Below are positions 1-58,208 of a stretch of DNA of 64,000 nucleotides, piece by piece; position 1 is the first letter of the stretch; every line of letters starts with the position of its first letter. Location: sequence record MK327936.1, one strand, 5' to 3'. The notes under the pieces were generated by a model. That model searched no databases, was not told where the DNA came from, and saw only the letters and a list, made by a program, of their open reading frames with translations. The DNA is from Escherichia phage vB_EcoM_G2540. The position numbers and the translations under genes were made by a program.

Positions 1-2178
1 TTAGGCCGCAAGGGCCTTCATAGTTTTAGCGATTTGGGAAACTTCATCATCACTTAAAGAGTTGCGATAACCGATGAAGTCGGAAACAATACGGAATTTC
101 TTGGTAAACTCAGCAACCATTTTATCACTGTTTTTTGAAGCATTATTTGATAATATATCAAAAAGATTAGTTACTGTCCAGATGTCATGACCGATGGTAT
201 CTTTTCCACCATTAAAATATACGCCGCGCAATGAACTAACTATATTAGCGAGTCGTGTATATTCTTCAGAAACTTCATCTGTACTGAAGTACTTCATCAT
301 AAAATCTAGTTCAGGATACTTGATAATTTTATCAATATATCGTTGAGCTGAACTTGAATAACCTACATACTTATCATAATCTACATCATCAAAAGCATCT
401 ACATATAAATCACGCAAAGCTTCAAAAATACATTGGCACTGACCGAGTTCTTTTACCTTTTTCTGCAAAAGCGGACGAATAACATAAAACTCATTAATGC
501 CAATAAGATTAGCCATACGAATCAAAATATTCATAGATGGATGACAAAGAGATGTAGTACCATCCATAGAGAAAATATCAGAACGATGCATATACGCTAC
601 ATACCCAGTAATTTCATCTGCTTCTGATGTGAGCGTAAATAATTCCTCTTTTTCCCAGCGCCCGTCTTTAATTTCAAACTTAAATGCTGTAGCAGCTTTA
701 GGACGAGGAGCTTTACTTTTAACTACCTTTGGAATATAGCTTTTAACTAAAGCTTCAATTTCTGACAAATAATGAATGTTAACTTCATCACTTTCAAACA
801 TCGCCATAATATCAGGAAGCAAATCAATCTGCGATTCTACTTCTGGATTAATAAACAGAAGGCGTTCGTTGTGATGAATATTCAAAGTGTTATTAAATTC
901 ACTATCATCTAACGCATGTGCTAATCCACGGACAATATTAACACGATTTTTAATATTATCAATAACGATATTAATTTTTGTTGCATTAATACCAAACAGA
1001 CGATAACTTGATGCAACGGCTGAAGTTTCATGACTTTGCTTAATGCGCTTCAGTCGAGGGTCAAGATTTACTTCATACACAACTCCTGCATTGCATAACT
1101 TACTGTCAGGTTCAAACATGCTCTGCATCTTTTTATATGACAGATTTTTAGTCGTAAATTTGACTGAATTACTAATCATATAATCTCGAGCAGAATACCC
1201 CATCTTCATCAATTCACGATATGTATGACGGGGAGATGTGGATTCTTTAAATCGTTTTACATCTTCATTAAATGCTTTCTCACTGAGTTCTTTAACTCGT
1301 TCAATAATATTTTTACGAGTACGATCATCCAGTGAAAGAGCCTCGCGAGATGGAGCAATATCAAGTGAACCCATTGGAAACTTAATGTAATTCACTTCAT
1401 TGCGAATGCTTAGCCAGTTACGGTCTCTAATAACACCATCGATAGGATAAACAATACCGCCATAGATAGCATATAATCCACCACGATCAGGCCAGTATCT
1501 TTCTGGATTTACACCGTAATAGTCATTAAAATCCGGAAAATAATCAATTTCGCGGTCAAGACCATTAATGATAGCCAAATCTTTGAATGGTCGCATGATA
1601 TAAGAAACTTCATAAGCAAAGTTTCTAAAGTCTTTTTCTTCAACTGGAACTACGATTTCAATACCAGTTTTATCATCTGGACCCATTTCTTTTACGAATG
1701 TAGGTTTAATCTGTGGACCATCACCATCCATGTAAGCTACATAACCACGAATTTCACCTTTATGATACGAAGTAATACTAAATGTATCAGTATAACTAAA
1801 CGGAGATTTAGAACCTAAACCAAACCCGCCAATAAAGTCATTAGATTCAGCCTTAGATGAACTGAAGTATGAATTATATAACCCAGGAGAATTATCATCA
1901 CCCTGAATATCAAAATCACTCATACCCGGACCAAAATCTCGACAAACAAATCGCGGATCTAATCGTCCTGGAACTTGTATGATAAATTTTTCAGGATTTC
2001 CATTAAGTGCATGGGCATCAATCATATTAGTAATTAATTCACGGACTACTGCACGAATCTTGTTTGTATACAAATCAGATGACAGAATTTTAAATACTTT
2101 AGGAGATGCTGTGATGCTAAATGCTTTTGATTTAGAACCATTGCCAAGAATTGTTTCTTTTTCAGTGGTGATAATCAT
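1..2178 (-). CDS. rIIA: rIIA protein, 725 aa
   Basis: 725-aa ORF ending at window position 1; length and N-terminus ([14 protein letters not shown]...) match recalled T4 rIIA. Confidence 0.85.
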
Positions 2179-2188
2179 AATTTCCTCA

Positions 2189-2392
2189 TTAATTCATATT
2201 ACGCTTAATAACTTCAGCAACTTCTAGTAATTCATCTTTAGTTGCAGTGTCGGATTGAATTTTATCTCTAATATCTTTAAAGCGGTTTTTAAATTCTTCG
2301 GCTTCTCCCATATCGAAAAAGCGTTGAATGATTCTATATTCTCGATGAACTGCTTTATCAAAAAGTTCTAAATTTACTTTATATGATTTCAT
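2189..2392 (-). CDS. small conserved protein downstream of rIIA (rIIA.1 position)
   Basis: 67-aa ORF in the rIIA.1 position by synteny. Confidence 0.55.
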
Positions 2393-2417
2393 TTCAATAT
2401 CCTCATTTGCCCAATTA

Positions 2418-2447
2418 ATTATACCACATCCTTGTGGTAAAGTAAAC
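2418..2447 (-). promoter_or_regulatory. T4-type early promoter
   Basis: minus-strand -35 GTTTAC (plus gtaaac 2442-2447), 18-bp spacer, -10 TATAAT (plus attata 2418-2423) preceded by GTGG; upstream of rIIA.1/rIIA. Confidence 0.6.
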
Positions 2448-4267
2448 TACTGGCTCATCCATTCTTTACGAAGGTCAGCATTATCTCCCATGAGCATTTC
2501 AAAAAGCTCTTTCCAGTTCTCAGGAAGTTTAACAACATCATATACTGGATTTTGAATCATCTCACGATATTCAGATTTTTCCAAAGAGCCAAGTCCTTTA
2601 ATATAACGGATGCTATGTTTAGGTAGAGCATCTTTAGCACTCTCATATTCAGCGACTGTATAAAACCATTCTTGTTTTTTACCAATCTGTGCGATGATTA
2701 CAGGAGTTTTGACAAAGCGAATTCGTCCTTGCTCAAACAGTTCTGGCCAATTACTAAAAAATCCAAGCAGAGAAGGATAAATGCTTCCTAGACCATCATG
2801 GTCAGCATCAGTCATAATAGCAATATTATGATAATTCAAGTTTTCAGCTTTTTCACCGAGAACTAATCCAGTGATTGCGCAAATATCAAACAGTTCTTTG
2901 TTTTTAAGCATGTCAGCATATGACATACCCCAACTGTTGAGAACTTTACCACGTAATGGATAACCACCGTGAAGTTCTTTATCACGAACATCAATAAGAT
3001 ATCCGATAGCCGAATCACCCTCAGTCAAGAAAAGAGTAGTATCAGCATCTTTACCACAAAGATTCGCTTTAATATGTTTATGAACCTTAGCTTTAGAAGC
3101 CTTTTTAGCTGCTTTAGTTTCTGCTGCTTTTTCTGCCGCTAATTTACGAGCCAAAGCAGCTTCAATAATCGGCATTAGAATTGCTTCATTATTTAGAATA
3201 GCACGTGAAATCTTTTTAGCATCAAGTTGAATATGACTACGGATTTCACCAAATGGAGAAGTCAAACGCTCTTTAGTTTGAGAATCAAATCGCATGTTTT
3301 TCATATCACGGACAAACATAACGATAGTCAAACATTCTTTAACGCGTGCTTTAGTCACATCAATTTTGAACTTACGTTTGATTTGTGGAATAAGGTCTTC
3401 ACAAATATCATCCATAACACAGTCAATGTGATGGCCACCATTCTTAGTGTGAATGTTATTCACATAAGTTAATTGACGAAAACCATCCGGTGAACGACCA
3501 ACCGCAATAGAGCAATTTTCTTGTTCTTGAACGATAGCATGCTCATCATATTGGCGTGCATATTTCTTAAAATTGCCCTGAACCTTTTTACCATTAAAGG
3601 TAAATTGAATATCAGGATAAACTACTGCAAGTGTCTGGAGACGATCTAGTGTAATGTCAAGATAAACTTGGGACAGCTCATTAGTTTCAAATGACATAAA
3701 ATCAGGAATGAAAGTAACGCGAGTTCCTTTCCATTTTCCTGGAATAGTTTCCCATGATTTATTTTCCATGCCATTTGAACAACGAACTACAATATTATTT
3801 TGACCATCACCAGTTTCACCGACAAACATCACAGAAAAAATGTTTGTCAAACTAGAACCAACACCATTCATACCACCGGTGACGCGTTCTTTATCATCAC
3901 CGAAGTTACCACCTGCTTTTGGAATAGTCCAGGCAGCAACAGGACCAGGAATTTCTTCACCAGTAGGTGTTTTGACCATCGCTTGTGGAATACCGCGACC
4001 GTTATCTTCAACTGTTACTTGATTGTTTTTAATAGTAATATTAATTTTATTTGCGAATTTAAACTTAGTACGAATACCTTCATCTACTGAGTTATCGATA
4101 ATTTCATCAATAAGCTTAACAAGACCAGGTACATACTGAACACTTTCCCATTTACCAAACAGAAAGCGCTCATGCATTTCATTAGCAGAAGAGCCAATAT
4201 ACATGCCGCTACGCTTTTTGATATGTTCAATATCGCTCAGAATTTTAATTTCATTCTTAATCATCAC
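2447..4267 (-). CDS. 39: DNA topoisomerase II large subunit (GyrB-like ATPase), unsplit 606-aa form
   Basis: N-terminus MMIKNEIKILSDIEHIKKRSGMYIGS..., GHKL ATPase motifs (EDNGRGIP); single ORF covers what T4 splits into genes 39 and 60. Confidence 0.85.
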   Translation of the reverse strand: MMIKNEIKILSDIEHIKKRSGMYIGSSANEMHERFLFGKWESVQYVPGLVKLIDEIIDNSVDEGIRTKFKFANKINITIKNNQVTVEDNGRGIPQAMVKTPTGEEIPGPVAAWTIPKAGGNFGDDKERVTGGMNGVGSSLTNIFSVMFVGETGDGQNNIVVRCSNGMENKSWETIPGKWKGTRVTFIPDFMSFETNELSQVYLDITLDRLQTLAVVYPDIQFTFNGKKVQGNFKKYARQYDEHAIVQEQENCSIAVGRSPDGFRQLTYVNNIHTKNGGHHIDCVMDDICEDLIPQIKRKFKIDVTKARVKECLTIVMFVRDMKNMRFDSQTKERLTSPFGEIRSHIQLDAKKISRAILNNEAILMPIIEAALARKLAAEKAAETKAAKKASKAKVHKHIKANLCGKDADTTLFLTEGDSAIGYLIDVRDKELHGGYPLRGKVLNSWGMSYADMLKNKELFDICAITGLVLGEKAENLNYHNIAIMTDADHDGLGSIYPSLLGFFSNWPELFEQGRIRFVKTPVIIAQIGKKQEWFYTVAEYESAKDALPKHSIRYIKGLGSLEKSEYREMIQNPVYDVVKLPENWKELFEMLMGDNADLRKEWMSQ

Positions 4268-4316
4268 TTATCCTCGTTTGGTTTCGGGAATATTATACTC
4301 CGGTAATCATAAAGCT

Positions 4317-4334
4317 AAAGGCCCGAAGGCCTTT
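4317..4334 (-). terminator. intrinsic terminator hairpin
   Basis: aaaggcc-cgaa-ggccttt stem-loop (UUCG tetraloop on the transcript) immediately 3' of the 4334..4603 ORF. Confidence 0.5.
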
Positions 4335-4603
4335 TATTTAAAACGAATAGTCGAATCCTTGAAGAATAGTCCAGAACATACTGTTCCTTCTACTTTCTGC
4401 CCAGTAGGTCCAATAGCACGAAATCCAGTATGCTGGAAATCATTTTCAGAGCAACCGAACCAATTATATCCAGTGATTTCAATATTAGTAAAACCACTTG
4501 AAGACAAAACTTTGGTTGCATTATCAGCATCAGTACATCCTATTAAAGACACTGCTAATACTAATGCTGCGATAGAACGATTAATATATTTCATAATTTT
4601 CAC
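4334..4603 (-). CDS. putative lipoprotein, 89 aa
   Basis: signal peptide with lipobox-like LIGC motif (MKIMKYINRSIAALVLAVSLIGC). Confidence 0.5.
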   Translation of the reverse strand: MKIMKYINRSIAALVLAVSLIGCTDADNATKVLSSSGFTNIEITGYNWFGCSENDFQHTGFRAIGPTGQKVEGTVCSGLFFKDSTIRFK

Positions 4604-4971
4604 TTAAATTTAATGGCTTGAAGAAGACTAATAATTCTCAAGCGACTTCCTTCATCTTTAACTGTAAAAGAAAGAGGGTCACCAGATTTCATAGTGATAG
4701 TGCATTCAAAAGCAAAACCTTCGGGAACTTCTTCGAAGAAGTCAAATTCTTCATCATAAATTAGAACATTACTCTGAAAACTGTGAAGAATTTTTCCGTC
4801 ATTTCCAGATGCTGTACTAATCATTGTAACATTATTACCTTTCATATCTTCAACGATAAATTCGCTTGTAGATATTACAGCATTAATAGAACCATTCCTA
4901 TAAATAGCAGAAAATAGATATTTCTTTTCTTCACCTTCGCGAATGCGATATTTCTTACCGATTTTAAACAT
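4600..4971 (-). CDS. hypothetical protein, 123 aa
   Basis: ORF tightly packed with neighbours (start overlaps stop of upstream ORF). Confidence 0.45.
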   Translation of the reverse strand: MFKIGKKYRIREGEEKKYLFSAIYRNGSINAVISTSEFIVEDMKGNNVTMISTASGNDGKILHSFQSNVLIYDEEFDFFEEVPEGFAFECTITMKSGDPLSFTVKDEGSRLRIISLLQAIKFK

Positions 4972-4973
4972 AA

Positions 4974-5150
4974 TTACCCTTTAAGTAAGTCGTAAAATCC
5001 GCCATTCACATGCTTAGGGGCAGAGACTAACCGAATAGCAATCCGATGACAATCAGGACATACATCAGTATCTCTTTCAGAAATTTTCTTGATTTTTTCG
5101 TATTCTTTTGCGCAGTCTTTTGATTGACATTTATAATCATAAAGCGGCAT
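4974..5150 (-). CDS. small zinc-ribbon protein, 58 aa (below the ORF-track size cut-off)
   Basis: hand translation MPLYDYKCQSKDCAKEYEKIKKISERDTDVCPDCHRIAIRLVSAPKHVNGGFYDLLKG; two CxxC pairs; fills the gap between flanking ORFs. Confidence 0.45.
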   Translation of the reverse strand: MPLYDYKCQSKDCAKEYEKIKKISERDTDVCPDCHRIAIRLVSAPKHVNGGFYDLLKG

Positions 5151-5152
5151 AA

Positions 5153-5566
5153 TTATTCCTTAAAGTGAGCTTTCAACATCTGATACAAGGACCATGCCTG
5201 TTCATCATTTTCAATAGTAACTTTCATTACAGGGAATTTAGATTGATCAGTTATCGGTGCAGATTCTTCCTGCTCTTCAGCTGCCTGGTATGGATTTTCA
5301 ACTTCATTAAAGAATTCAGCTTCATTCGATGAAAGCCAAATAAAATCTTCATCCAAAATATCTTTACCAGAAGATAGTACTAAATTTCCAGCAAATGACA
5401 TAATTTTAATAGGACGCCCAAGAGCATCCACATCTAAAATTTTAAAAGGATGCATACCTAAACGGCGTGCATAGATTCCGTTATCAGTATGGTCTTTAAT
5501 AAAATTTTCTTGAGCTTGTTTATTTTTAAACTGATACCATTTATTAACTTCAAATTTAATAGCCAT
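5153..5566 (-). CDS. hypothetical protein, 137 aa (goF position by synteny)
   Basis: ORF in the position and approximate size of T4 goF; no motif recognised. Confidence 0.4.
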
Positions 5567-5781
5567 TAATAAATTTCCTTCCAGTAAGTTGTACCATCTT
5601 CAGTGATTTCACGAAATACACCGTAAATTGGTTGTTTATCCCCAACCTTTTCATACACATAAACCGAAGTCAAGTGAGTAAACTTAGCAGTGTGTTCCTT
5701 TTGAACTACTACCAAATCTGGATCGAATAACACATCTTCAAATTCGTCATTAGTGCAGTTCTGAACAATTTTACGTTTCAT
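5566..5781 (-). CDS. hypothetical protein, 71 aa (cef position by synteny)
   Basis: 71-aa ORF, size and position consistent with T4 cef; sequence identity not verified. Confidence 0.35.
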
Positions 5782-5953
5782 TACAATTTCCTCGTTAATT
5801 GAACATTGGAGCGATGCGTTTCAGAAGAGTAGCAGCACCTTTGGCAAATTTTCCATTTTATTCTCCAAATTATTTTCTATATCAGTAGTTGATATTGATA
5901 TAGTACCATAATCAACTACTGATGTATATAGTTTTATGAAAAAATTTTAAACT

Positions 5954-6445
5954 TTATGCATAGCGAGCTTTGCTGTAGTGTTTAATCCAACTTTCAGGAA
6001 TGACTTTGTATGTTCCTAAAAATACCGCGTTGTATAACTTAACGCCATCTTCTACCCATTGATCAGTAATGTATGCACACATAGCGCGAGTACGCTGAGG
6101 AAGTGGTTGTCCACCTTCGGTAAATTCAAACTCATAAGGAGCAATGAACTTGATAGCTTGACCAAGTTTCCACTTAAAGTCTACACCTACATGCGAAGTA
6201 TCAATCGTTTCAATTCCTTTAGCAGGAACAGCTTTCAAAAACGCAGGCTCAAGAAATTTCCATCGAACATAACCAAACTGGGGCTTAGACATTCCATCTT
6301 TAGCAATGATACGTACTTTTACTTCAGAATCTTCATCTTTAACACCATGTTTAAGCTGAATGCTTACAACTTCGACCAATTTTCCTGCTGCTTTAGAACG
6401 GGATTTATCAGATACACGAGCAATTTCACCGATATTAATATTCAT
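5954..6445 (-). CDS. motB: MotB-like protein, 163 aa
   Basis: size (T4 MotB 162 aa) and position; a frameshifted paralogue with a similar C-terminus lies immediately upstream. Confidence 0.5.
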   Translation of the reverse strand: MNINIGEIARVSDKSRSKAAGKLVEVVSIQLKHGVKDEDSEVKVRIIAKDGMSKPQFGYVRWKFLEPAFLKAVPAKGIETIDTSHVGVDFKWKLGQAIKFIAPYEFEFTEGGQPLPQRTRAMCAYITDQWVEDGVKLYNAVFLGTYKVIPESWIKHYSKARYA

Positions 6446-6489
6446 AATTATCTCTCACTTGTTAAAAAGATTTTATACTCCACAGGACC

Positions 6490-6519
6490 ATTATACTCTG
6501 GTCCCAAGAGTTTGTAAAC
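6490..6519 (-). promoter_or_regulatory. T4-type early promoter
   Basis: plus gtaaac 6514-6519 (-35 GTTTAC), 18-bp spacer, plus attata 6490-6495 (-10 TATAAT); upstream of motB. Confidence 0.5.
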
Positions 6520-7066
6520 TAGCTTAAACGAACATTAATCACTGCGCTACGAGGAACTACAGAGTATTCTCCAGCATGAACTACGTTCAGAAGTTCAACG
6601 CCATCTTCAATCCACTGGTCTGTTACCCAACCACAGATAGGATTATCAAAAGGACGACGGATAGACACAGCAGCACACAACAGGTCTGTAGGGTCTTGTT
6701 CTTCAACTTCTTGGAACAGGATGAACTCATCTTCATAAACCAGGTTTTCTTTATTTTGTTATTATCTAACCGGCGACCGTGGATGACGTAAGATTTGTCA
6801 AACCACTCACTTTTGGCAAATTCTTCAACAATAAATTCGCCTTCGCCAAAAACATCAGTCAGAGTTTTATGACCAGAAATCAAGGCATTAGTTTTAATTT
6901 TAGGTTCAACCAGTTTGTAGGTTTTGCCGATTTCAATAGCGGTAGTCATAATAGGTTCCTTAATTTCCAGTGGTTTAACAGGGCATACATAAGTGCTTAC
7001 AACATCAAAATCAATCAGTTTAGCTACCGGATTTGGTATGTATTCAGGATTATAATTAAATTTCAT
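6519..7066 (-). pseudogene. motB-family paralogue interrupted by a frameshift
   Basis: N-terminal frame (6623..7066) runs into a junk tail; a second frame (6519..6758) with no Met encodes ...CGWVTDQWIEDGVELLNVVHAGEYSVVPRSAVINVRLS, matching the MotB C-terminus; frames switch in an A/T-rich tract near 6745-6775. Confidence 0.5.
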
Positions 7067-7068
7067 AA

Positions 7069-7569
7069 TTATCTCATTTCAATAAAATCTACGAGTTCAG
7101 CATGCGATTTGCGGAACATTACTTGGTGCCCACCAATGATAACTTCATCTTCAGGAACTTCGTATACAGCGAGATAAAATCCTTTAGAAGATAATTCTTC
7201 CCGCTCTTCTCGTGTGAACCATCTCATCATATCATATTCACTAGCGAAAGCAAAATGATAAAGACCTATAAACCATCCTGGAATATGATATTCTACTCCA
7301 ACATAATCTTTCTTGAACTTAGTATTAATTACTATATTAGCGTTTTTAACTAATAGTTTATCTTCGTGTGGTAAAGGAATTCTTTTATTATTATCGCTAT
7401 GATGCATAAAATTAGGTCTGTCATAACCTACGTGTAATAGCCACTCTTCGCTCCATGAATCTATTATACTCCTGTACGGCGTTATTTGAACACAAAGATT
7501 TCGACGTATTGTTATAGCATCTTCATAATCAAGAATACTAAACGATGATTCAACACGATAAATTTTCAT
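7069..7569 (-). CDS. hypothetical protein (~166 aa from internal Met)
   Basis: ORF 7069..7608; start placed at MKIYRVESS (GAGGA Shine-Dalgarno upstream) because the ORF-track start overlaps the promoter. Confidence 0.45.
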   Translation of the reverse strand: MKIYRVESSFSILDYEDAITIRRNLCVQITPYRSIIDSWSEEWLLHVGYDRPNFMHHSDNNKRIPLPHEDKLLVKNANIVINTKFKKDYVGVEYHIPGWFIGLYHFAFASEYDMMRWFTREEREELSSKGFYLAVYEVPEDEVIIGGHQVMFRKSHAELVDFIEMR

Positions 7570-7596
7570 TTTATTATCCTCAGTAGCTATGGTGTT

Positions 7597-7626
7597 ATAA
7601 TACCACAACTAACCGAGGAAGTAAAC
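7597..7626 (-). promoter_or_regulatory. T4-type early promoter
   Basis: plus gtaaac 7621-7626, 18-bp spacer, plus ataata 7597-7602 with GTGG context. Confidence 0.5.
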
Positions 7627-7632
7627 AACTTT

Positions 7633-8316
7633 TTATCGTTTTGTTGTAAGAGATAGAGGATCGCAATCTTCCTCTGACGGAGCATCTTCAAGACCCATAG
7701 CATATCGCAAAGCATACTTCATCATCAGAATATCTTTCGCACAGTCATGAATAGAATCATGCGCAACGAATCCATCTAAAGTTCCTTTTGGAAGAGGACA
7801 CGTGGTCATATCACGAACAAGCAGAAGTGCTTCAATTCTGGTACGAATATCACGCTGATTCCAGAATTTACATGGTTCTAACTTAAATGTGTCAAGCTCA
7901 TTCTCAGAAACACCATTAAGACGTTGAATATCACGAATGAGATCGACTAAAATTGGAAAATCAAACGACATTCCACGGCACCAGCCTTGAGATTTCCAAG
8001 GATCGATATTATGTGCATTGATGTAATCATTAAATTTTGCAATACCATCGATGGTGCTTACATCTTCATCTGATGGTGCAATATTTTTTCGAGCTTCAGG
8101 AGACTGATTTTTCCACCATTCGATAGTGCTTTTAGTAAAAAGACGATGTCCTTTTTGGCTTTTTAAATCAAATTTGATTTTAATGCCGCGTGAAACTAAT
8201 TCATCAAATGTTTCAACTACTTCTGGGTTAGGGTCAAAAGCAATTACAGCTAAATCAATAACAGCTGCTTTTTCACCACTTCCCATTGTTTCAAAATCTA
8301 TAATAAAATCAAACAT
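7633..8316 (-). CDS. dexA: exonuclease A (DEDD 3'-5' exonuclease), 227 aa
   Basis: 227 aa as in T4 DexA; N-terminal acidic exonuclease motif (FDFIIDFETMG); synteny upstream of dda. Confidence 0.75.
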   Translation of the reverse strand: MFDFIIDFETMGSGEKAAVIDLAVIAFDPNPEVVETFDELVSRGIKIKFDLKSQKGHRLFTKSTIEWWKNQSPEARKNIAPSDEDVSTIDGIAKFNDYINAHNIDPWKSQGWCRGMSFDFPILVDLIRDIQRLNGVSENELDTFKLEPCKFWNQRDIRTRIEALLLVRDMTTCPLPKGTLDGFVAHDSIHDCAKDILMMKYALRYAMGLEDAPSEEDCDPLSLTTKR

Positions 8317-8591
8317 TAAATTTTCCTTGCTAAATCGCGAATTTGACCTACAGTATAGTCTTGAATATAAACTTTATTAATAGGTTCATCAATAAATTTT
8401 GCCATAGATTCAATATCTTTTTGCATCTCTTCAAGACTGTATATTATCTTTAAAGCTTTTTCGCGAATAGTAATATTTTCAGGACCAGAATTTTTCTCAA
8501 TGACAGCTTTAACATTTGTCATAAGAGATTTAAACTGACACCAACTTAATTCAATCATTAATAACCGCCTTATAAAGATGGCTAATTTCAC
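8316..8591 (-). CDS. small hypothetical protein (start uncertain)
   Basis: one of three small tandem ORFs between dexA and dda; C-terminus resembles the next ORF. Confidence 0.35.
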   Translation of the reverse strand: MKLAIFIRRLLMIELSWCQFKSLMTNVKAVIEKNSGPENITIREKALKIIYSLEEMQKDIESMAKFIDEPINKVYIQDYTVGQIRDLARKI

Positions 8592-8811
8592 CTAAAATGT
8601 AATCACTGATTGTAACAGTTTTTACTTCACCACAAAAGAATTCTAACGCAATCAAATCTCGTTCAATTTCTTCCAATTGAAGCATTAACTTGCCTGATTC
8701 AATTTTCACGTTTTTGCGATTTTTACTATAAGCTATTTCATAAATTTCGCTAACTTTATCCTGAAGAAGATAAAACTGATCTTTAGTTATTTCCACGAAT
8801 AGCTTCCTCAA
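8551..8811 (-). CDS. small hypothetical protein (start uncertain)
   Basis: C-terminal motif ...ISDYILGEI resembles ...IQDYTVGQI of the downstream ORF. Confidence 0.35.
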   Translation of the reverse strand: MRKLFVEITKDQFYLLQDKVSEIYEIAYSKNRKNVKIESGKLMLQLEEIERDLIALEFFCGEVKTVTISDYILGEISHLYKAVIND

Positions 8812-21370: not shown

Positions 21371-21715
21371 TTAAAAGAATTTAAACTTTTTCTTTGACCT
21401 TTTATTGAATGCATCTTGCAGTTGCATTGTAATACATTTTTCTACATGAGGAGCTAACTCAGCTTTTCTTTCTTGGTCAAGAACAGCAAAGTCCATTACA
21501 ACCTTTCCATCAACCCAATCCAGTTTAGTTACATACACTATATGTGTAGAACCATCTTCTAGTTTAATGACAATCTCCTGGATAACATTTTCCATAGCGG
21601 ATTTAATTATCTTAAGAGACTCATTAAAAAGACGTTCTTTTCTTTCTTCTTCCCCCTCCGAAGAGGGGGATTCATCGATAATTTCTAGATCTAAATCTAA
21701 ATCATCTTTATTCAT
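21371..21715 (-). CDS. 40: gp40-position protein (~114 aa from second Met)
   Basis: uvsX-40-41 synteny; ATGAATAA overlap with the uvsX stop if started at MNKDDLD. Confidence 0.55.
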   Translation of the reverse strand: MNKDDLDLDLEIIDESPSSEGEEERKERLFNESLKIIKSAMENVIQEIVIKLEDGSTHIVYVTKLDWVDGKVVMDFAVLDQERKAELAPHVEKCITMQLQDAFNKRSKKKFKFF

Positions 21716-22883
21716 TAAATTCTTCCATATCACTTAACTGTTCGAGGTCAGTTTCTAAATCAGCAGCTGATTTACTTTTACTTTCTGGAGATTTAAATTT
21801 TTCAACCTTTGAGTTAATCAATTCATCAACTTCAGCTTCAACAATTTCATTACTATCAATAGCACCTAACTGATAAGCACGTTTAATAGCATCTCGGAAT
21901 GGTTGATGCTTAAATAAAGGACCCCAGAATGTAGTGCAGTTAGTATCTTTTGCACGCCAAGATTTTTCTTCGCGAATCATCTCGCCGGTTTCTTCATCAA
22001 GAAATTCACGAGCATACCAACCATTTTTAGGTTTTACCACAAATCCTAATTCTAGAGCCATATCTAACAATCCAGAATAAGGATCGATACCACCGTCAAA
22101 TTTAACATCAATAAAGAATTTACTTTTTTCTTTAACGGTACGAGATTTTTCTACATTTAGAACAAATTGATACCCCTGAAGATCAGAACCATCTTTAATC
22201 TGACGCTTACCGATAATGAATACGGTATCAGCCGAATACATTACGCCTGTACCACCTGTCATCACGGTTTTACTAAACATTTCAATGGTTTCAATTGTAT
22301 GGTTAACTGCAACACATGGAATATTTTTAATGCTAAAATAAGGAGTAACAATACGGAATAATGACTTCAGTGATTTAGCACGAGTCATATCTGCCACAGA
22401 TTTTTCATTCAAGGCATCTTCAGTTTCTTTCTTAGAAGCCATATTACCAATTGAATCGATGAATACAATAACTTTTTCACCACGCTCAATAGTTTCAAGC
22501 TGATTCACCATATCAATTTTCAGCTGTTCAACTGACTGGATTGGCGTATGAATTACTCGTTCTGGGTCAACTCCCATAGACTTAAGATAAGCCGGAGTGA
22601 TACCAAACTCTGAGTCATAGAACAAACAGATAGCATCAGGATACTTATTCAAATAAGCTGCTACCATTGTCAGTGACATATTAGATTTAAAATGTTTAGA
22701 AGGCCCTGCGAAAATAGTTAAACCAGACTGCATACCACCGTCCAACGCACCGCTAATTGCAATATTCAGCATTGGAATTTTAGTACGAACCACATCCTTT
22801 TCATTAAAGAACTTGCTTTTAGTAAGCTCTGCAGTCATTTTAGAAGTGGAAGCTTTAATCAAACGGGATTTTAAATCAGACAT
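21708..22883 (-). CDS. uvsX: UvsX recombinase (RecA-like), 391 aa
   Basis: 391 aa as in T4; RecA core with Walker A (FAGPSKHFKS). Confidence 0.85.
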   Translation of the reverse strand: MSDLKSRLIKASTSKMTAELTKSKFFNEKDVVRTKIPMLNIAISGALDGGMQSGLTIFAGPSKHFKSNMSLTMVAAYLNKYPDAICLFYDSEFGITPAYLKSMGVDPERVIHTPIQSVEQLKIDMVNQLETIERGEKVIVFIDSIGNMASKKETEDALNEKSVADMTRAKSLKSLFRIVTPYFSIKNIPCVAVNHTIETIEMFSKTVMTGGTGVMYSADTVFIIGKRQIKDGSDLQGYQFVLNVEKSRTVKEKSKFFIDVKFDGGIDPYSGLLDMALELGFVVKPKNGWYAREFLDEETGEMIREEKSWRAKDTNCTTFWGPLFKHQPFRDAIKRAYQLGAIDSNEIVEAEVDELINSKVEKFKSPESKSKSAADLETDLEQLSDMEEFNE

Positions 22884-22999
22884 TATATTTTTCCATAGGC
22901 AGCATTATATTTTACTCATGTTTATAATAAAGGGTATTGTTATACCCAGAGTTTAACTACATCATATTTAATAATGAGATAATTATATCACCTTATCAT

Positions 23000-23113
23000 T
23001 TAGCATTTACTTTTTGATTTCTTACTTTCATAAAGGTCATACAGATACAATCCAGCAAGACTAACTGCGGCAAATATTCCTAAGCCAGTAATGAATAATA
23101 AAGGTCCTAACAT
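23000..23113 (-). CDS. candidate small hydrophobic peptide, 37 aa
   Basis: hand translation MLGPLLFITGLGIFAAVSLAGLYLYDLYESKKSKSKC in the uvsX-bgt intergenic region. Confidence 0.3.
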   Translation of the reverse strand: MLGPLLFITGLGIFAAVSLAGLYLYDLYESKKSKSKC

Positions 23114-23125
23114 ATTAACCTCAAA

Positions 23126-24203
23126 TTAAGCGGTGATATCGAGAACGCGAAGAAGCTCTTCTTGCCATTCTGATTTTAAACTTTGATACTTAAATAGGGT
23201 TTGATGTTGTATTGTAATCAATTCCCGCCTCAAGCACTCATTGGTTTTTAACTCATTTACTAAAGTTTCAAAATCATTTTTATTCTTAACGTAGAATCTA
23301 GGGTCGTCAATAATAAGATGCTCGCTATCAAACTCTTCATCGATAAGCATCACAGCATCTGATGCCATGGCCTCCCAGACTCTAATTGTGATAAAATTAT
23401 CATTGTAATCTTTATCACCAATGACTATAGTTGCTATCGCTTGGCTATTCGTGTCAATAACCAAATTTGATGCTATTTTTTTGACTGAATGATGGAGCTA
23501 CATTCCACGGAAATTTAGGATTTTTAAACTGTTTCTCTTTAATAGTTCCAAACATTTTAATATTTAAATTGGTATCAAAAAGAAATTCAACTATTTTAGA
23601 CTCTCGTTGCCCACCTCTAAACGCGCCGCAGTACACAACGTCATATTTTTTAATAGTTTGATTCGCAGGTTTAAGTTTCTGTGAATGAATAAAATATCTA
23701 TCTACAGGAAAGTAATCATACTCAAATTCTTTACCGTATCTTTCGGTTGTTTTCTTATGAGCCTTTTTAGCAATTTCTAGATTTCTGCCCTGAGATATTA
23801 CTTTAAAGTCAGATGACACAAATAAGTCTTCATCTTTGTATTCACTTGAAAATTTCTTTCTGCGAACTACCGGAAGAACTTGCATAAATCCAAGACGGCC
23901 ATCAGTAAAAATATAATAAATTTTACTTCTATATTCAGCCATCAATTTATATGAATTTAAAACGATTGGATTTTTCTTTCCACCGAAGAAATTGATAGCG
24001 CCATTAATTACTATTAGTCTATCGTATGAATTTATATCAGTTACTACATCAAATGATATAGTGTATTCAGTATTTCGCATTGAAATTATATCAACGGAAT
24101 GCCCTAATTCAGTTAAAGACCTGCCTATTAAAATAGTTTCGGCTGATGATACTATTTTAAAATCACTCACAGTATTACTTAAATTTAGAATAGCTATTTT
24201 CAT
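23126..24203 (-). pseudogene. bgt: beta-glucosyltransferase-like gene split by a frameshift in an A7 run
   Basis: 249-aa N-terminal ORF plus 112-aa C-terminal ORF together resemble recalled T4 beta-gt (~60% identity); frames switch at the T7 run 23476-23482; removing one base restores FSQKIASNLVIDTNSQAIA, colinear with T4. Confidence 0.65.
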
Positions 24204-25057
24204 GATATTTCCGTAACTTCAACTTTGTGAATAGCATTAAACTTATGAAATGCTTCTGATTTTTCTTTACGCGAAACGCACATGCGAAGAACCTTTAATG
24301 GCTCGTCTTCTTCACCCAACGATTTTCGTTTTTCAATATTAGAAGTTTTCCAACGAGCTTGCTCTGGAAACTCTCTATTGATTTGCTCAAGCGCTCTATT
24401 ATGTTTAGAATTACTACGAATTGAACTACACCCGCCAGGAGCTTGTGCTTTTCCAGATACAACTAGATATTTGAACAAGGCCAAATGCGGATAACCTTGA
24501 TTAATTAAATTGAGAAATGCATACATATCTTCGCATAAATCAATTTTTCCATACCCAATTTGTTCTGTCGTAAGTTTTCCGAGGTCATACCATGTATTCG
24601 TGAATCCATATGAATTTTCACGATAATTACCCCAAGATGAAGTAATTTTAAAAATTGGTAGACGAGCATGACCGTGATAATACCCGCAATCCATGGCATC
24701 TTCAACATATTGAATCAATTCATAGAACTGTTCACGAGTCAATTGATTGACTTTATCTACGCAACGCCGATCATCTCTTTTTCGCATTGAACTCATACGA
24801 ATAGTAGTATCATCGTCAATCATCCAGATTCGTTGACCTGCATACATATCAGTAATTGCTTTACGAGTACCAGCAATTCCATTTACATCATCAGGAATAG
24901 TTATAATTTTAGCTCTAGACCCATAGGCATCATAATAAGCTTTTTCTTCGTGTTCACGTACTACAATATGTGGTTCATAATCAGTCGGAAACATATCAAG
25001 GGCAGAAACTGCCCCTACACGTTGATAGCTTGGAATTACGAATTGAATCATTTCCAC
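24200..25057 (-). CDS. putative GT-A-fold glycosyltransferase, 285 aa
   Basis: N-terminal QFVIPSYQR resembles the GT2 VIPTYN motif; DxD-like IWMIDDDTT ~80 aa in; sits between bgt and gene 42. Confidence 0.4.
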   Translation of the reverse strand: MEMIQFVIPSYQRVGAVSALDMFPTDYEPHIVVREHEEKAYYDAYGSRAKIITIPDDVNGIAGTRKAITDMYAGQRIWMIDDDTTIRMSSMRKRDDRRCVDKVNQLTREQFYELIQYVEDAMDCGYYHGHARLPIFKITSSWGNYRENSYGFTNTWYDLGKLTTEQIGYGKIDLCEDMYAFLNLINQGYPHLALFKYLVVSGKAQAPGGCSSIRSNSKHNRALEQINREFPEQARWKTSNIEKRKSLGEEDEPLKVLRMCVSRKEKSEAFHKFNAIHKVEVTEIS

Positions 25058-25788
25058 TCACCGTTATAATCTTTTTTCACAATATGAGTTTCGCCAGTAT
25101 TCCACCAATGATCAACCAAGTAAAAATGACGAGAATATACATGAAGACTTCCAACATTCCATATAATAGAACCTGCTTTATACTGACGAGTTGAATCGCC
25201 TGCATTCAAATCAGATACTAATTTATCTAATACGTATTTTTGCCATGCATAATCATTACGGAATCCGAAGACCACGTCATTTGAGCGCATGCTTACTACT
25301 GCATTGACTTTCTTATCACGAATCAGGTACTGTACTGTATTAGTACACATGAAATCTGACATACCATCTTTATTGTAGTCAAATTGCATGGATGGACGAG
25401 TATAAATCATGATACCACGTCGAGAATCAGGATTTTGACCAAGTTCAGCTAAACACATATCATACTGGGCATAGTTATCTTCTGACCAAATAGCCCAACC
25501 ATAATTCGAGTTAATTTCACCTTTAGAAGATGCTACCTGCTGCCAAATTTTCGGTGTTTCACCTGGAATATCTTTAACAAACAAGCTTTTAGATTTATAC
25601 CATTCAAGTTCACGCTGAATGTATTCATCATTAAGAGCGCCAAAAATAAACGGTTCATCTGCTACAAATGATGCGCCAATAATTTCAATAGTTTTAACGC
25701 CAGTTTTATCAACTACGAAATCTTTTTCTTTTAATGCAGTTCCCAAATAAAAACGGATTTCTTCAACTGTCATAGAGTCATTAATCAT
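25048..25788 (-). CDS. 42: dCMP hydroxymethylase gp42, 246 aa
   Basis: 246 aa as in T4; N-terminus ...DSMTVEEIRFYLG... matches recalled gp42. Confidence 0.85.
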   Translation of the reverse strand: MINDSMTVEEIRFYLGTALKEKDFVVDKTGVKTIEIIGASFVADEPFIFGALNDEYIQRELEWYKSKSLFVKDIPGETPKIWQQVASSKGEINSNYGWAIWSEDNYAQYDMCLAELGQNPDSRRGIMIYTRPSMQFDYNKDGMSDFMCTNTVQYLIRDKKVNAVVSMRSNDVVFGFRNDYAWQKYVLDKLVSDLNAGDSTRQYKAGSIIWNVGSLHVYSRHFYLVDHWWNTGETHIVKKDYNGEWK

Positions 25789-26208: not shown

Positions 26209-26580
26209 TCAAATTTTTACGCATGAATTATAAGAATTCACTACATACTCCATCGGAGCATTTTTACCAGTACGCCATTGGTAATTATTAGCCCAATTAG
26301 CCCAAAGCTCGGCGCAGTAGTTTTCAATTTTTTCTTCGCGTGTAATTACATCCGAATTACGATATGCTTGAGCAGATTCATCTGGACGAATAGCTTCGTC
26401 AAAATTCGCCTGCATTTGTTCTACTGTTTGCTTTGGAGCTTCTTTATAACACTTGACATTAGGATTATAAAATTTGCTTGAACAGTTTACAATTTTTCCT
26501 ACATCAGACTGATTTACTACCGGTCCTTGAGCTACACAACCAGTAAGACCTAATGCAATAACCAAAATAGCGATTTTCAT
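26209..26580 (-). CDS. putative lipoprotein, 123 aa
   Basis: signal peptide with lipobox (MKIAILVIALGLTGC). Confidence 0.5.
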   Translation of the reverse strand: MKIAILVIALGLTGCVAQGPVVNQSDVGKIVNCSSKFYNPNVKCYKEAPKQTVEQMQANFDEAIRPDESAQAYRNSDVITREEKIENYCAELWANWANNYQWRTGKNAPMEYVVNSYNSCVKI

Positions 26581-26590
26581 AATAATTTCC

Positions 26591-26827
26591 TCAAATGCAA
26601 GTAGTAATTACTCCAGTAGTGCTTATGCAGGTATTACCCATTTGCACACCTAAAGATCCATTGGTATTCACATGAAGATTATCATCAATTTTAACTGATA
26701 TTTTACCATTAGTGTGAATAACGGTGCTAGATTCAATCACAGGTTGAGTATCATTTTCAACACTAACAAATGGAACTGCTGCTAATGCAACTAAACAAAC
26801 TGCTAAGCATCCCATAACAATTTTCAT
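26591..26827 (-). CDS. small secreted protein (~78 aa from internal Met)
   Basis: signal-peptide-like MKIVMGCLAVCLVALAAVPFVSVE; the ORF-track N-terminal extension overlaps the promoter so start is trimmed. Confidence 0.4.
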   Translation of the reverse strand: MKIVMGCLAVCLVALAAVPFVSVENDTQPVIESSTVIHTNGKISVKIDDNLHVNTNGSLGVQMGNTCISTTGVITTCI

Positions 26828-35959: not shown

Positions 35960-36975
35960 TGTGTTGCCTCTACATATAACTGATTTGCATATTGAATAAG
36001 TGCTTCACGGTCAGAATCAGTGATGTCTGGAATTGCATTAATGTATTCTTCCATCAACGTCTGAAGAGATTGAACTTCAACTTCTTCACTTTCATCTGAC
36101 TCGACAGAGTTATCAATCTTTGACACAACTCGTAATGAATGCACAACTTTTTCTAGTTCAGATTCGAACTTCGTTAGATTTTTGTCTACTTCAGTTACTA
36201 TAACACGTACTGATAGATTTGTAAAATCTTTATAGTCAATTTTTCCTTTAAATGGATAATGAATTCTGCGATGCCAAGTAGTGTTGTTTGGAATAAATTC
36301 CATTCGTTCTGTTTCTGTATCAAACATCCAGAACCCGCGAGGGTCATTCTCGTCACCTGCAGTTAGTGTCCATGGTGTCCCAATATATCTGACATTTGCA
36401 GCCTCAGAGATAGTATGGAAGTGACCAGACCACACTTCTTTATAAGTCTTAAGGAAATCAGGTTCAAGACCGTGAGATTTCATTCCTTTATAAAAATAAA
36501 ATCCATTCAGTTCCCAGTGACCAACACAAAAAGAAGCAGATGAAGTTTTGATGTGTTCAAGAATTTCACCAGTATTTTCTTCGCACATCCAAGGAATCAA
36601 ATCAATCAAACATCCGTCAAAATCTACTGTAGTAGGCTTATCATATACTTTAACATTAGGATATTTAGCCAAAAGCTCAGTAGAGGCATTTGGATGCATT
36701 ACATTTTTGTAGTGGAGATCGTGATTTCCTACAATAGTATGTAATGTGATTCCAGCGTCATCAAGCATTTGAACTATTTCACGGGCAAACTCCATAGTTT
36801 TATGCGTGATTGCTTTTCGCACATCAAAAATATCACCATATTGAATCCATACAGTAATTCCATTTTTCTTAGAATATTCTATCGCTTGCTTAATTCCATC
36901 AATTTGAATACCGCGAATCCACTCATCATCAGCTTTAACGCCTAAATGCCAATCACCCAAGTTTAGTATTTTCAT
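35956..36975 (-). CDS. 47: recombination nuclease subunit gp47 (Mre11/SbcD-like), 339 aa
   Basis: 339 aa as in T4; phosphoesterase motifs (LGDWHLG, GNHD). Confidence 0.85.
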   Translation of the reverse strand: MKILNLGDWHLGVKADDEWIRGIQIDGIKQAIEYSKKNGITVWIQYGDIFDVRKAITHKTMEFAREIVQMLDDAGITLHTIVGNHDLHYKNVMHPNASTELLAKYPNVKVYDKPTTVDFDGCLIDLIPWMCEENTGEILEHIKTSSASFCVGHWELNGFYFYKGMKSHGLEPDFLKTYKEVWSGHFHTISEAANVRYIGTPWTLTAGDENDPRGFWMFDTETERMEFIPNNTTWHRRIHYPFKGKIDYKDFTNLSVRVIVTEVDKNLTKFESELEKVVHSLRVVSKIDNSVESDESEEVEVQSLQTLMEEYINAIPDITDSDREALIQYANQLYVEATQ

Positions 36976-37576
36976 GGTGTCTTTTCCATCCTAATTTAGC
37001 TGCTTTTGAAACCAGTTCTTTAATTTTTCCTTTTGTCCATTCAGGACCAGGAGGTTCATGACATAACATTTGCTTAACTCCGTTATTATACCATTTTTTA
37101 CCTTTATTATGTGATGAAGCTTTAAATTTATTTGACCTTCCTTTTACATAACCTTCTGGAATATAAGGCAAAAAGGCAGATTTTCCTGTTAATGGATCAT
37201 GTGAATGTATATTTCCTTTACAATTATGAGAACCATATAATGGATGATTTTGTCCTTTATTATCTCTTCCAAATGAACCTTTTGGAGCAGCATATGACAT
37301 ATTAAAGAATAATGGATTTTTAACTGCATCATGCAATCGTTGATAATATAACTCGCATTTAATAGCTTCTTCACGCGTATCAAATTCAGCTAAAATGCAT
37401 GAATCAAATAAGTGAGGATTATCTGAAAGCTCTTTATTATAAATTTTCTTATACTTTTTAGATAAAACTGAACCATGATATCCAGCTAAATGCCTATCTA
37501 AAGACGTAGATCCAATATAAAAAGGAGGAAGTTTATCTCCACTATATATTGTTAAATAAGTTATATATTTTTTCAT
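36953..37576 (-). mobile_element. GIY-YIG (Seg-like) homing endonuclease, 207 aa
   Basis: GIY-YIG module YITYLTIY...FYIGSTS with downstream Arg and Glu; basic C-terminal region; 3' end overlaps the gene 47 start by 23 nt. Confidence 0.7.
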
Positions 37577-40527: not shown

Positions 40528-40734
40528 TTATCTAAGTAAGCAGTATGCTTGGAACACTTTCTCCATCATCTTTTTAAATTCATGAATATCTATATAATGA
40601 CTAGTTAAATCAGCATGATATAAAAAGTCTAAAAACTTTTCATGTGTGCTAACATATTCACTTTCATTTAATTCAGAAACATGACTTTCCCAATATCCAA
40701 CACCAGTCTTATTTGGGAAAAATGAAATTTTCAT
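40528..40734 (-). CDS. small hypothetical protein, 68 aa
   Basis: ORF in the 55-nrdH variable block. Confidence 0.35.
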   Translation of the reverse strand: MKISFFPNKTGVGYWESHVSELNESEYVSTHEKFLDFLYHADLTSHYIDIHEFKKMMEKVFQAYCLLR

Positions 40735-40793
40735 GCATTAATCAACATAGAAAATGCCATAATTTTCAATAGTAATAGAAATATTAATAAATT

Positions 40794-41015
40794 TCATACA
40801 TTCATCAACTTAGCCGCTTCAAGAGCTGCATCTAGTGAATCAAATTGGTCAACATATTCAATCAATTCGCCATAATTGGCATATAACCACCATTGGCTAA
40901 ATTCATACTCAAGGATGAATCCGTTTCCTTCAATTTGAGTTAAACCAATGCCATTTGTATTTACTTCATATCCAGCAAGACGCAAATCGTTAATAAGAGC
41001 TTCGTTCATATTCAT
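40794..41015 (-). CDS. small hypothetical protein, 73 aa
   Basis: ORF. Confidence 0.4.
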   Translation of the reverse strand: MNMNEALINDLRLAGYEVNTNGIGLTQIEGNGFILEYEFSQWWLYANYGELIEYVDQFDSLDAALEAAKLMNV

Positions 41016-54780: not shown

Positions 54781-55044
54781 TTATTTTAACGTTCGCCAAA
54801 TTTTTACTGCTTCACGGCGAGATACTTCTACAGCTCCAAGTTCTACAGCTTTTTGGCGTCGGCGAGCGTGTAAGTCATAATGTTTAATGCGTTTATCTTG
54901 AAACCAAGAACGTTTCATTCCTATTGCTTCTGCCATTTCATGAAGCTCTTCAATATCTCCATCAGTGAACATATGACAATTTTTAGTTGGATGACCGCGA
55001 AGTTTCCATCCATGATTCATTAAAACATCTACGTAAACTGTCAT
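54781..55044 (-). CDS. hypothetical protein, 87 aa
   Basis: ORF; His/Arg-rich. Confidence 0.4.
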   Translation of the reverse strand: MTVYVDVLMNHGWKLRGHPTKNCHMFTDGDIEELHEMAEAIGMKRSWFQDKRIKHYDLHARRRQKAVELGAVEVSRREAVKIWRTLK

Positions 55045-55190
55045 TGATTCTTCTCCAAATAAGTTTCGATAATTTTCTGAGCGAGATAAACTGCATTATC
55101 TTCAGTTGCATCTTCTAAGAAACTTTCAAAACACTCTGAAATTTCTTCTGTATCAATCAACTTTTTTACTTCAATTGGTGTAATTTTCAT
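55041..55190 (-). CDS. small hypothetical protein (~49 aa from internal Met)
   Basis: ORF 55041..55361 trimmed to MKITPIEVKK because upstream sequence is promoter/terminator. Confidence 0.3.
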   Translation of the reverse strand: MKITPIEVKKLIDTEEISECFESFLEDATEDNAVYLAQKIIETYLEKNQ

Positions 55191-55227
55191 TTTGTTTTTC
55201 CGTTTAAGTGTTTGTTTTGATAGTTGT

Positions 55228-55257
55228 ATAGTACCATAAAGCTTTATGCTTGTAAAC
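55228..55257 (-). promoter_or_regulatory. T4-type early promoter (repeated cassette family)
   Basis: plus gtaaac 55252-55257, 18-bp spacer, plus atagta 55228-55233. Confidence 0.5.
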
Positions 55258-55282
55258 AATTTTGTGAAAAATTTTTGAAATA

Positions 55283-55308
55283 AAAAAAGGGAGCCCGAAG
55301 GCTCCCTA
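55283..55308 (-). terminator. intrinsic terminator
   Basis: agggagc-ccgaa-ggctccct hairpin followed on the transcript by UUUUUUUAUUU; 3' of the 328-aa ORF. Confidence 0.6.
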
Positions 55309-57311: not shown

Positions 57312-57878
57312 TCACTTTGAAATCATAGTTGGAATGGCAGAATCAAGATAAGTCTTTAGCGCAATAGCTTCGTCTTTTGTAAATGTAACAATATGTGCTC
57401 GAAAATCGTCAATTTGGCGAATAGTTAAGACATCTCCTTCTTCATAACATTTTGATACATTTAAAACAGTTTCATCATTCTGATCGCACTGATCGCAAGC
57501 GTTAGTAATAATAGCATTGCAATTTTTGAGCCATTTTAAACTATGTTTTCTTTCATTAGAATAATAAAAATATTTAATCTTAGCTATAAAACTATCCCAA
57601 TGGATAACTGATAAACACATTGACTCACTTTTAATATTAAATCCTGGGCATGAAGAATAAAAATGAATTTTGTGCTCATCATTGATGCTTACTATTTTAT
57701 CAGTATAAGGATATTCAATTTGGATTAAATGAACGATTTCACTAGGCGTAAAATATAGCATATCGTCTTCTTGCGTCAAACGATACATGTTATTTACTTT
57801 TTCTATAGCCAATTCACCAAAAAGCGGACTAACTTCTAATACTAATCGTTTCATATTGATTCTCTTCGACTCACTCAC
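57312..57878 (-). CDS. hypothetical protein, 188 aa (paralogue pair)
   Basis: C-terminus ...TKDEAIALKTYLDSAIPTMISK; probable GTG start with AAGGAG Shine-Dalgarno. Confidence 0.45.
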   Translation of the reverse strand: MSESKRINMKRLVLEVSPLFGELAIEKVNNMYRLTQEDDMLYFTPSEIVHLIQIEYPYTDKIVSINDEHKIHFYSSCPGFNIKSESMCLSVIHWDSFIAKIKYFYYSNERKHSLKWLKNCNAIITNACDQCDQNDETVLNVSKCYEEGDVLTIRQIDDFRAHIVTFTKDEAIALKTYLDSAIPTMISK

Positions 57879-58013
57879 AATTACATACTCCTTTGAATAA
57901 TATCAATAATGTTGTTCACCAGATTATAAGTAAACATTGGGTAATTATATTGAATCATCACATACACAACAAACAAAACTTTCATTCTCTTCTCCTTGAC
58001 CGTTGACAAGATT

Positions 58014-58043
58014 ACTATACCATAACCTTGTCAACTTGTAAAC
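58014..58043 (-). promoter_or_regulatory. T4-type early promoter
   Basis: plus gtaaac 58038-58043, 18-bp spacer, plus actata 58014-58019. Confidence 0.45.
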
Positions 58044-58208
58044 CATTAAATGACGTTTTCAATAAAATTCTGAAGCTTTGTGTGAGCATCAACCATAATT
58101 TTCATTTCTTCCTTTGCGAAAGCTGTACCTCTTTCCCGAGCAGAATACTCATAGTCAGAAACTGCATTAGCATATTCTTCAATTAGCTTCATTAAAAACA
58201 TTTGCTTT

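Follow-up and report, generated by a model that had tools for sequence, protein, structure and literature searches.

A single added A splits the T4-type beta-glucosyltransferase gene in the genome record of Escherichia phage vB_EcoM_G2540

The genome record of Escherichia phage vB_EcoM_G2540 (here G2540) contains a homologue of the DNA beta-glucosyltransferase (beta-gt) gene of phage T4 that is interrupted by one added A in a run of six, so that the gene is deposited as two open reading frames (ORFs) in different frames. We analysed this gene within a 64,000-nucleotide stretch of the 168,886-bp genome, referred to as the window, which starts at rIIA and runs colinear to the genomes of other Tequatrovirus members. 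The insertion is found in the G2540 record only, it falls inside the part of the enzyme that holds the UDP-glucose site, and the neighbouring genes of the DNA modification pathway are intact. We suggest that the extra A is a real slippage mutation that has knocked out a dispensable gene, a reading to which we give a probability of about one half. That the seventh A is present in the phage itself, and not only in the assembly, is to our minds only slightly the likelier case. The first-pass annotation of this DNA had offered a sequencing error and a true inactivation as its first two alternatives, and these are the two explanations that survive the present analysis.

The split itself is plain. 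Both the sequence and the ORF list bear out the earlier description of a beta-gt-like gene in two frames with the switch at 23476-23482: the 249-aa and 112-aa ORFs differ in frame and overlap just 3' of the run of seven T (Table 1). It had also been claimed that six A would restore the frame, and indeed, when one A is removed, a single ORF of 1077 nt and 358 aa results, reading ...FSQKIASNLVIDTNSQAIA... where T4 beta-gt at the aligned position reads ...FTGKIPMNMVSEKNSQAIA...; the peptide that spans the junction in the repaired frame is ...SFSQKIASNLVIDTNSQ... A continuous chain of ~350 aa extending over both Rossmann-like domains is absent from the sequence as deposited and present after the deletion of one A, and the protein repaired in this way is identical to the intact 358-aa protein QZI80263.1 and to others.

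The assignment to the T4 beta-gt family, also proposed in the first-pass annotation, is confirmed by three comparisons. The Pfam family PF09198 (T4-Gluco-transf) matches the 5' ORF with E = 8.5e-62 (208 bits, with a cut-off of 27), and the profile of PHROG 7922 (beta-glucosyltransferase; E = 4.5e-94) is divided between the two pieces, with profile positions 1-243 on the 5' ORF and 249-357 (of 358) on the 3' ORF. The repaired protein aligns with PDB 1bgt at E = 7.5e-124, residues 1-355 corresponding to residues 1-350 of 351. Its measured identity to T4 beta-gt is 55%, slightly below the ~60% that had been estimated by eye. The colinearity of the two ORFs with T4 beta-gt is far beyond chance, and judged by its sequence the locus is an ordinary orthologue of the T4 enzyme. 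By its family, the intact protein would be of the GT-B type and would glucosylate 5-hydroxymethylcytosine (HMC) in DNA, with UDP-glucose as the donor.

The gene sits between gene 42 and uvsX, as it does in T4, in the order 42 / beta-alpha-gt / beta-gt / 37-aa ORF / uvsX, and the stop codon of beta-alpha-gt overlaps the start codon of beta-gt (ATGA). Of the C-terminal piece, only the last 80 aa are annotated in GenBank, as the hypothetical protein QBO63284.1. Gene 42 supplies the HMC substrate. The adjacent beta-alpha-gt gene is 98% identical to T6 ggt and belongs to Pfam TAGT (PF20691) and to PHROG 842 (beta-glucosyl-HMC-alpha-glucosyltransferase; E = 6e-89); it is present at 95-99% identity in 471 phage records. 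The 37-aa ORF gave no family match and no PHROG match; it travels with the beta-gt-like gene, and both are missing from T6, from fFiEco06, which is of the same species as G2540, and from the sibling isolate G2540-3. G2540 is thus a T2/T6-type Tequatrovirus that additionally carries a T4-type beta-gt. The presence of three transferase genes in G2540 is already known from published work (Nikulin and Zimin 2021, PMC8056088), in which the frameshift goes unmentioned, and at least 11 later genomes have the three-gene set intact.

Table 1. Features of the split gene and of the surrounding DNA-modification genes; coordinates are those of the window.
Feature	Coordinates	Strand	Remarks
Whole beta-gt homologue	23126..24203	(-)	1078 nt as deposited; 1077 nt / 358 aa minus one A
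5' ORF, 249 aa	23454..24203	(-)	Residues 1-242 of beta-gt, then out-of-frame NSIKFGY and TGA; QBO63285.1
A7 tract (T7 on the + strand)	23476..23482	(-)	Site of the +1 insertion, between K237 and I238 (T4 numbering)
3' ORF, 112 aa, +1 frame	23126..23464	(-)	TTG start from a mechanical ORF call; beta-gt residues 247-358
beta-alpha-gt, intact, gentiobiose-forming, T2/T6-type	24200..25051	(-)	Pfam TAGT, PHROG 842, identity to T6 ggt
Gene 42, dCMP hydroxymethylase, intact, 246 aa	25048..25788	(-)	From the ORF list; T6 and T4 counterparts are annotated so
alpha-Glucosyltransferase, intact, 400 aa	37753..38955	(-)	PDB 1xv5 (T4 DNA alpha-glucosyltransferase), E = 7.7e-258
Small hydrophobic ORF, 37 aa, MLGPLLFITGLGIFAAVSLAGLYLYDLYESKKSKSKC	23000..23113	(-)	Between the beta-gt-like gene and uvsX; annotated CDS in relatives
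uvsX recombinase	21708..22883	(-)	Downstream boundary of the locus

Where the gene is broken bears directly on the expected activity. Residues E22, D100, R191, R195, I238, Y261, R269 and E272 of T4 BGT are all aligned and conserved in the repaired protein; in the crystal-structure literature on T4 BGT, the first two mark the catalytic base region, with D100 as the base, and the other six are contacts to UDP-glucose. The break lies between K237 and I238, and all residues from I238 on are out of frame in the deposited sequence, so that the 249-aa product keeps the N-terminal domain together with R191 and R195 and loses I238, Y261, R269 and E272. Because these four residues of the UDP-glucose site are lost, the product, left with half of that site, would be unable to bind the sugar donor and should be inactive, while the 3' ORF probably has no independent function. 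We also considered whether the two ORFs could act together as a functional split enzyme, and rejected this, since the break is inside the UDP-binding domain and the presumed binding residues are found on both sides of it.

Eleven other Tequatrovirus phage records carry the same allele (CHD2BS1, CHD16UKE1, G3F6, G3F8, G3F9, G3G6, G3G7, PM123, PM136, vB-Eco-KMB26 and UPWr_E2). All of them match over 1130 nt at 99.9%, and each encodes one intact 358-aa protein. When the gene was aligned base by base with that of vB_EcoM-CHD2BS1, nothing but the extra A differed in 1131 nt, and the blast alignment of KMB26 has A6 at the same place. In a protein-cluster database the exact 249-aa product is found on one contig and intact 358-aa forms on dozens; a look-up of this exact protein in assemblies gave none on record, and thus no independent assembly of the A7 allele, while a search of IMG/VR viral contigs gave no related loci. 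The event is unique to the G2540 record: it is either very recent or not biological at all.

In the explanation that we favour, one A was added to the A6 tract by replication slippage, a classic type of T-even frameshift. The enzyme would then be truncated at residue 242, and what is written in the record would be a null allele, of very recent origin, of an accessory gene that the phage can do without. T4 beta-gt single mutants grow normally, and it is only the total loss of glucosylation that exposes the DNA to host restriction, which is directed at HMC DNA without glucose; beta-gt is therefore dispensable, and its loss comes cheap. An engineered beta-gt deletion of T4 exists as a viable, sequenced phage, and many Tequatrovirus records have beta-alpha-gt without beta-gt (471 records with beta-alpha-gt vs 11 with the G2540-type beta-gt allele). 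The DNA of G2540 would accordingly be expected to be modified as in T2 and T6, with alpha-glucosyl and gentiobiosyl groups and some of the HMC bare, and in relatives with an intact beta-gt the rest of the HMC is presumably beta-glucosylated as well.

Split beta-gt genes are not rare in the databases, and independent 1-nt indels recur in the beta-gt genes of five different assemblies. Within the cluster that contains the G2540 allele, the protein pair WP_213058425/WP_213058426 results from a change of A6 to A5 at codons 186-187, and a second pair (P0012/P0015) from a change of A6 to A7 at the same codons together with a change of A5 to A4 near the end of the gene. Two other natural T4-type isolates bear separate lesions in beta-gt, which likewise speak for its dispensability: in Pu-Krd-SF6 the gene has T7 in place of T6 at nt 634, and in 236Ecol005PP a single C is missing at a site that is not part of a homopolymer.

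The strongest competitor is an error of assembly or consensus, by which the phage itself has A6 and an intact, functional 358-aa beta-gt, and the seventh A is a homopolymer miscall. We regard this as a serious possibility, if somewhat short of even odds. It would account well for an A7 that is unique to one record in an otherwise identical 1.13-kb sequence, and for an exact truncated protein that is seen on one contig only. Artefacts do strike beta-gt, as the P0012/P0015 copy shows, with two homopolymer indels within 1 kb that look like an assembly error. Consensus sequences made from PacBio reads alone typically err in homopolymers. The paper that describes the sequencing states that each phage was processed either by PacBio RSII and HGAP3 or by MiSeq and SPAdes, and the platform used for G2540 is unspecified in the paper and its supplements; the published methods thus allow for an RSII-only assembly without short-read polishing, whereas with MiSeq reads a consensus miscall to A7 would be very unlikely.

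To weigh these two explanations, the homopolymers of the window were audited. Runs of at least 4 nt (727 in total) were compared across four genomes, with orthologous runs placed by their exact flanks in at least two of the three relatives. Three of the 727 runs have a length that is unique to the G2540 window, namely the beta-gt tract, a run in motB.1 (A5 to A4 at 6745-6748, a frameshift in the middle of the gene) and a run in imm.1 (A6 to A5 at 26214-26218, which alters only the last few residues). Of the other genomes, CHD2BS1 has two unique changes, both intergenic, and the remaining two have none. Runs of seven are themselves uncommon, with only three in the window and none longer.

The low rate of such differences in itself argues against a generally poor consensus, and so does the finding of no split among the large conserved replication genes in the window. 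Further evidence comes from the sibling G2540-3. The two genomes differ in their mosaic make-up and have 94-97% identity across most of the window; two blocks (1919-8664 and 57338-61783) are 100% identical, and in these 11.1 kb no indel sets them apart. The motB.1 frameshift is also present in the separately assembled G2540-3, where the 121 nt around it are 100% identical, while 104 other records (at least 99% identity) carry a longer tract, which is A5 in the copies that were directly aligned. Since this frameshift is common to both assemblies, and since the 11.1 kb shows no indel discrepancy, at least one homopolymer frameshift in the lineage is therefore reproducible. The imm.1 change, by comparison, is a second coding homopolymer difference unique to this window for which independent support is missing, and on this point the consensus-error explanation gains. 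G2540 also has a lesion of another kind: denV is truncated by a deletion of ~1.96 kb, after which its first 101 codons run on into an ORF of unrelated sequence (63063-63662). The junction of this deletion was found in none of 523 related records, and a deletion of this size cannot be a homopolymer miscall.

Four further indels that at first seemed specific to the window, at 39188, 52294, 26904 and 29789, were set aside, as they proved to occur in a relative too, to lie in intergenic DNA or where two genes meet, or to stem from the end of an alignment.

We next consider the view that the tract is functional, either as a recoding site (by +1 frameshifting or transcriptional slippage) or as a contingency switch for beta-glucosylation, which we find very improbable. 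The first-pass annotation had raised a version of it, namely a slippery tract that gives low-level full-length enzyme. Runs of A are known slippage sites for polymerases, the beta-gt genes show recurrent independent 1-nt indels (the A6 to A5 and A6 to A7 changes at codons 186-187, and T6 to T7 in Pu-Krd-SF6), and a stable hairpin is predicted ~10 nt 3' of the tract (-20.3 kcal/mol, z = -3.7). The hairpin is nonetheless found in the same form in intact A6 genes, and T4 has at the corresponding place a sequence that cannot fold into it; an Rfam scan of 22800-25200 gave no match other than a meaningless, sub-threshold fungal U3. Conservation also speaks against a functional site, as A7 and the split occur in none of the 11 genome records and in none of the remaining full-length members of the cluster, and even the A6 run is unconserved: other alleles of the same 90% cluster read SFSPKIAS or CCAAAAATA at this place, and T4 reads GGAAAAATT.

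The mechanics are equally unfavourable. Programmed -1 frameshifting was rejected, since after a -1 slip on A AAA AAU the codon that follows is UAG, so that the frame stops at once, and since the hairpin is also found in intact genes. Restoring the frame requires a +1 shift, and no stop, slow or rare codon or Shine-Dalgarno-like stimulator was seen at the site. Runs of A6 are moreover common (61 A/T runs of six in the window) and far shorter than typical phase-variable tracts. The suggestion of a designed source of full-length enzyme therefore does not stand; an incidental leakiness at the percent level, by slippage of RNA polymerase on A7, is possible in principle as a by-product. Within the T4 beta-gt family the gene is thus an ordinary one, with an unconserved one-base expansion of A6 and no designed frameshift.

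A looser version of the same idea is that the short A/T runs in beta-gt together form a crude contingency switch, driven by slippage of the T-even DNA polymerase, with the A7 of G2540 as a captured OFF state. If this were true, the third glucosyltransferase would be switched off repeatedly, and possibly back on, and populations would be mixed in the glucosylation of their HMC, which could insure them against hosts whose defences recognise certain forms of glucosyl-HMC. We give this a slighter chance still, although the recurrence of independent 1-nt indels in five assemblies is compatible with it. The states of this tract among close relatives are one OFF (G2540) vs 11 ON, the other OFF alleles are at other tracts, and the tract has a length of only 6-7 nt.

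Finally, the earlier proposal was that we have here the divergent transferase by which T2/T6-type phages add a second glucose and form gentiobiose. In its favour are the identity to T4 beta-gt of only 55% and the T2/T6-type genome. It has a practically negligible chance of being right, as a comparison of the split gene with T6 ggt shows no similarity (E = 48), and the two differ in fold family, in Pfam family and in PHROG, and the comparison with T6 points instead to the adjacent intact gene at 24200-25051.

Under the slippage mutation that we favour, G2540 would be a natural beta-gt knockout beside isogenic, intact relatives (KMB26 and CHD2BS1), and such a pair could show what a third glucosyltransferase adds, be it the complete glucosylation of HMC or protection from defences that depend on DNA modification. 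If the A7 is an artefact, the GenBank record should have one beta-gt CDS of 358 aa in place of two hypothetical proteins. Beyond annotation, the finding is otherwise of little importance.

Among the closest known systems are the intact orthologues in the 11 other genomes, which have the same locus order as G2540 but A6 and one ORF, where G2540 has A7 and two. The gene is full-length colinear with T4 beta-gt (PDB 1BGT/1JG6) at 55% identity and lies in the same neighbourhood between gene 42 and uvsX. Unlike the T4 gene, it is interrupted by a +1 A in the deposited record, and it resides together with a beta-alpha-gt gene, of which T4 has none; it also represents a separate allele lineage, since the phage collection has no match to it in the range from 60% to 99% identity. 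According to the annotations of the matches, homologues of beta-gt adjoin a beta-alpha-gt-like gene in several other Tevenvirinae genera as well. The ggt gene of T2 and T6 is similarly a T-even transferase of glucose to DNA, encoded at the same locus and intact in G2540, but unrelated to the split gene in sequence and family. The broken genes of Pu-Krd-SF6, 236Ecol005PP and WP_213058425/WP_213058426 resemble that of G2540 in that single-base indels, mostly in A/T runs, give rise to two ORFs; they differ in position and are independent events. Spontaneous frameshift hot spots of the T4 rII type, located in runs of A, are attributed to Streisinger slippage. The G2540 change differs from these in being a fixed difference in one deposited sequence only, and is like them in that a T-even genome has gained one base within six consecutive A.

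The beta-glucosyltransferase homologue (beta-gt) carries, within its coding sequence, a stable RNA hairpin that begins on the 3' side of the A tract at which the gene is split, some 10 nt away from it. The hairpin has a 10-bp inner stem and a folding energy of -20.3 kcal/mol (z = -3.7), a stability matched by 0 of 200 shuffled sequences; no such hairpin is possible from the corresponding T4 sequence. A 37-aa hydrophobic ORF without a family match was also noted (all positions are collected in the table); since it is confined to genomes with this beta-gt allele, the two appear to belong to one 1.2-kb cassette. T4-type beta-gt is split in two more Tequatrovirus records, by independent 1-nt indels: in Pu-Krd-SF6 (PQ759886.1) a T6 run has become T7 at nt 634, and in 236Ecol005PP (PP434423.1) one C is lost at codon 241.

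Features of the window discussed here
Feature	Position	Strand	Tract or junction
motB.1	6519-7078	-	6745-6748
37-aa hydrophobic ORF	23000-23113	-	
beta-gt hairpin	23433-23473	-	
imm.1	26209-26607	-	26214-26218
207-aa ORF	36953-37576	-	
Interrupted 89-aa ORF	40528-40800	-	
106-aa ORF	55041-55361	-	55282-55288
199-aa fusion ORF	63063-63662	-	near 63360-63364
Blocks identical to G2540-3	1919-8664; 57338-61783		

Between gene 47 and the alpha-glucosyltransferase gene lies a 207-aa ORF which, judged by eye from the stretch ...LPPFYIGST..., resembles homing endonucleases of the GIY-YIG (Seg) type; KMB26 has no DNA matching approximately 36975-37570. Elsewhere, an 89-aa ORF conserved in the Tequatrovirus relatives KMB26, CHD2BS1 and fFiEco06 is interrupted in the window, where base substitutions have introduced a TAA in frame following codon 19, and the remaining ORF, which starts at an internal ATG, is 68 aa long.

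A larger change is seen at denV, the endonuclease V gene, where a 199-aa fusion ORF is found. Residues 5-105 of this ORF correspond to the N-terminal part of endonuclease V (the first 101 of the 139 positions of PHROG 1183), while residues 129-199 correspond to an unrelated 72-aa family (PHROG 2037). At the junction, which shows a 5-nt overlap, ~1.96 kb of KMB26 (61883-63845) is absent from the window, comprising five small ORFs and the 3' end of denV. None of 523 related records spans this junction, and the denV of G2540 is probably inactive.

Two blocks of the window are 100% identical to the co-isolated, separately assembled sibling phage G2540-3 (MK327944.1), while outside these blocks the two phages are 94-97% identical; this pattern suggests recent recombination between phages of one manure sample and host.

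Homopolymer tracts differ in length between the window and relatives at three further ORFs. The motB.1 frame is broken by a change from A5 to A4 when compared to the near-identical, intact copies of fFiEco06 and CHD2BS1; G2540-3 has the identical frameshift within flanks of 100% identity, and the tract is longer in the 104 remaining records at 99% identity or more. In imm.1, the window has A5 where KMB26, CHD2BS1 and fFiEco06 have A6, so that the C-terminal end reads ...VKI* instead of ...VKNLTK*. Every match listed among 502 records also has one base more than the window; among these matches A5 is found in the G2540 record alone. Finally, a 106-aa ORF is intact with A7 in the window, while its counterpart in KMB26, the one comparator covering the site, has A6 and is split. 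The relation between tract length and reading frame is the opposite of that in beta-gt, where A7 splits the gene and A6 leaves it intact.
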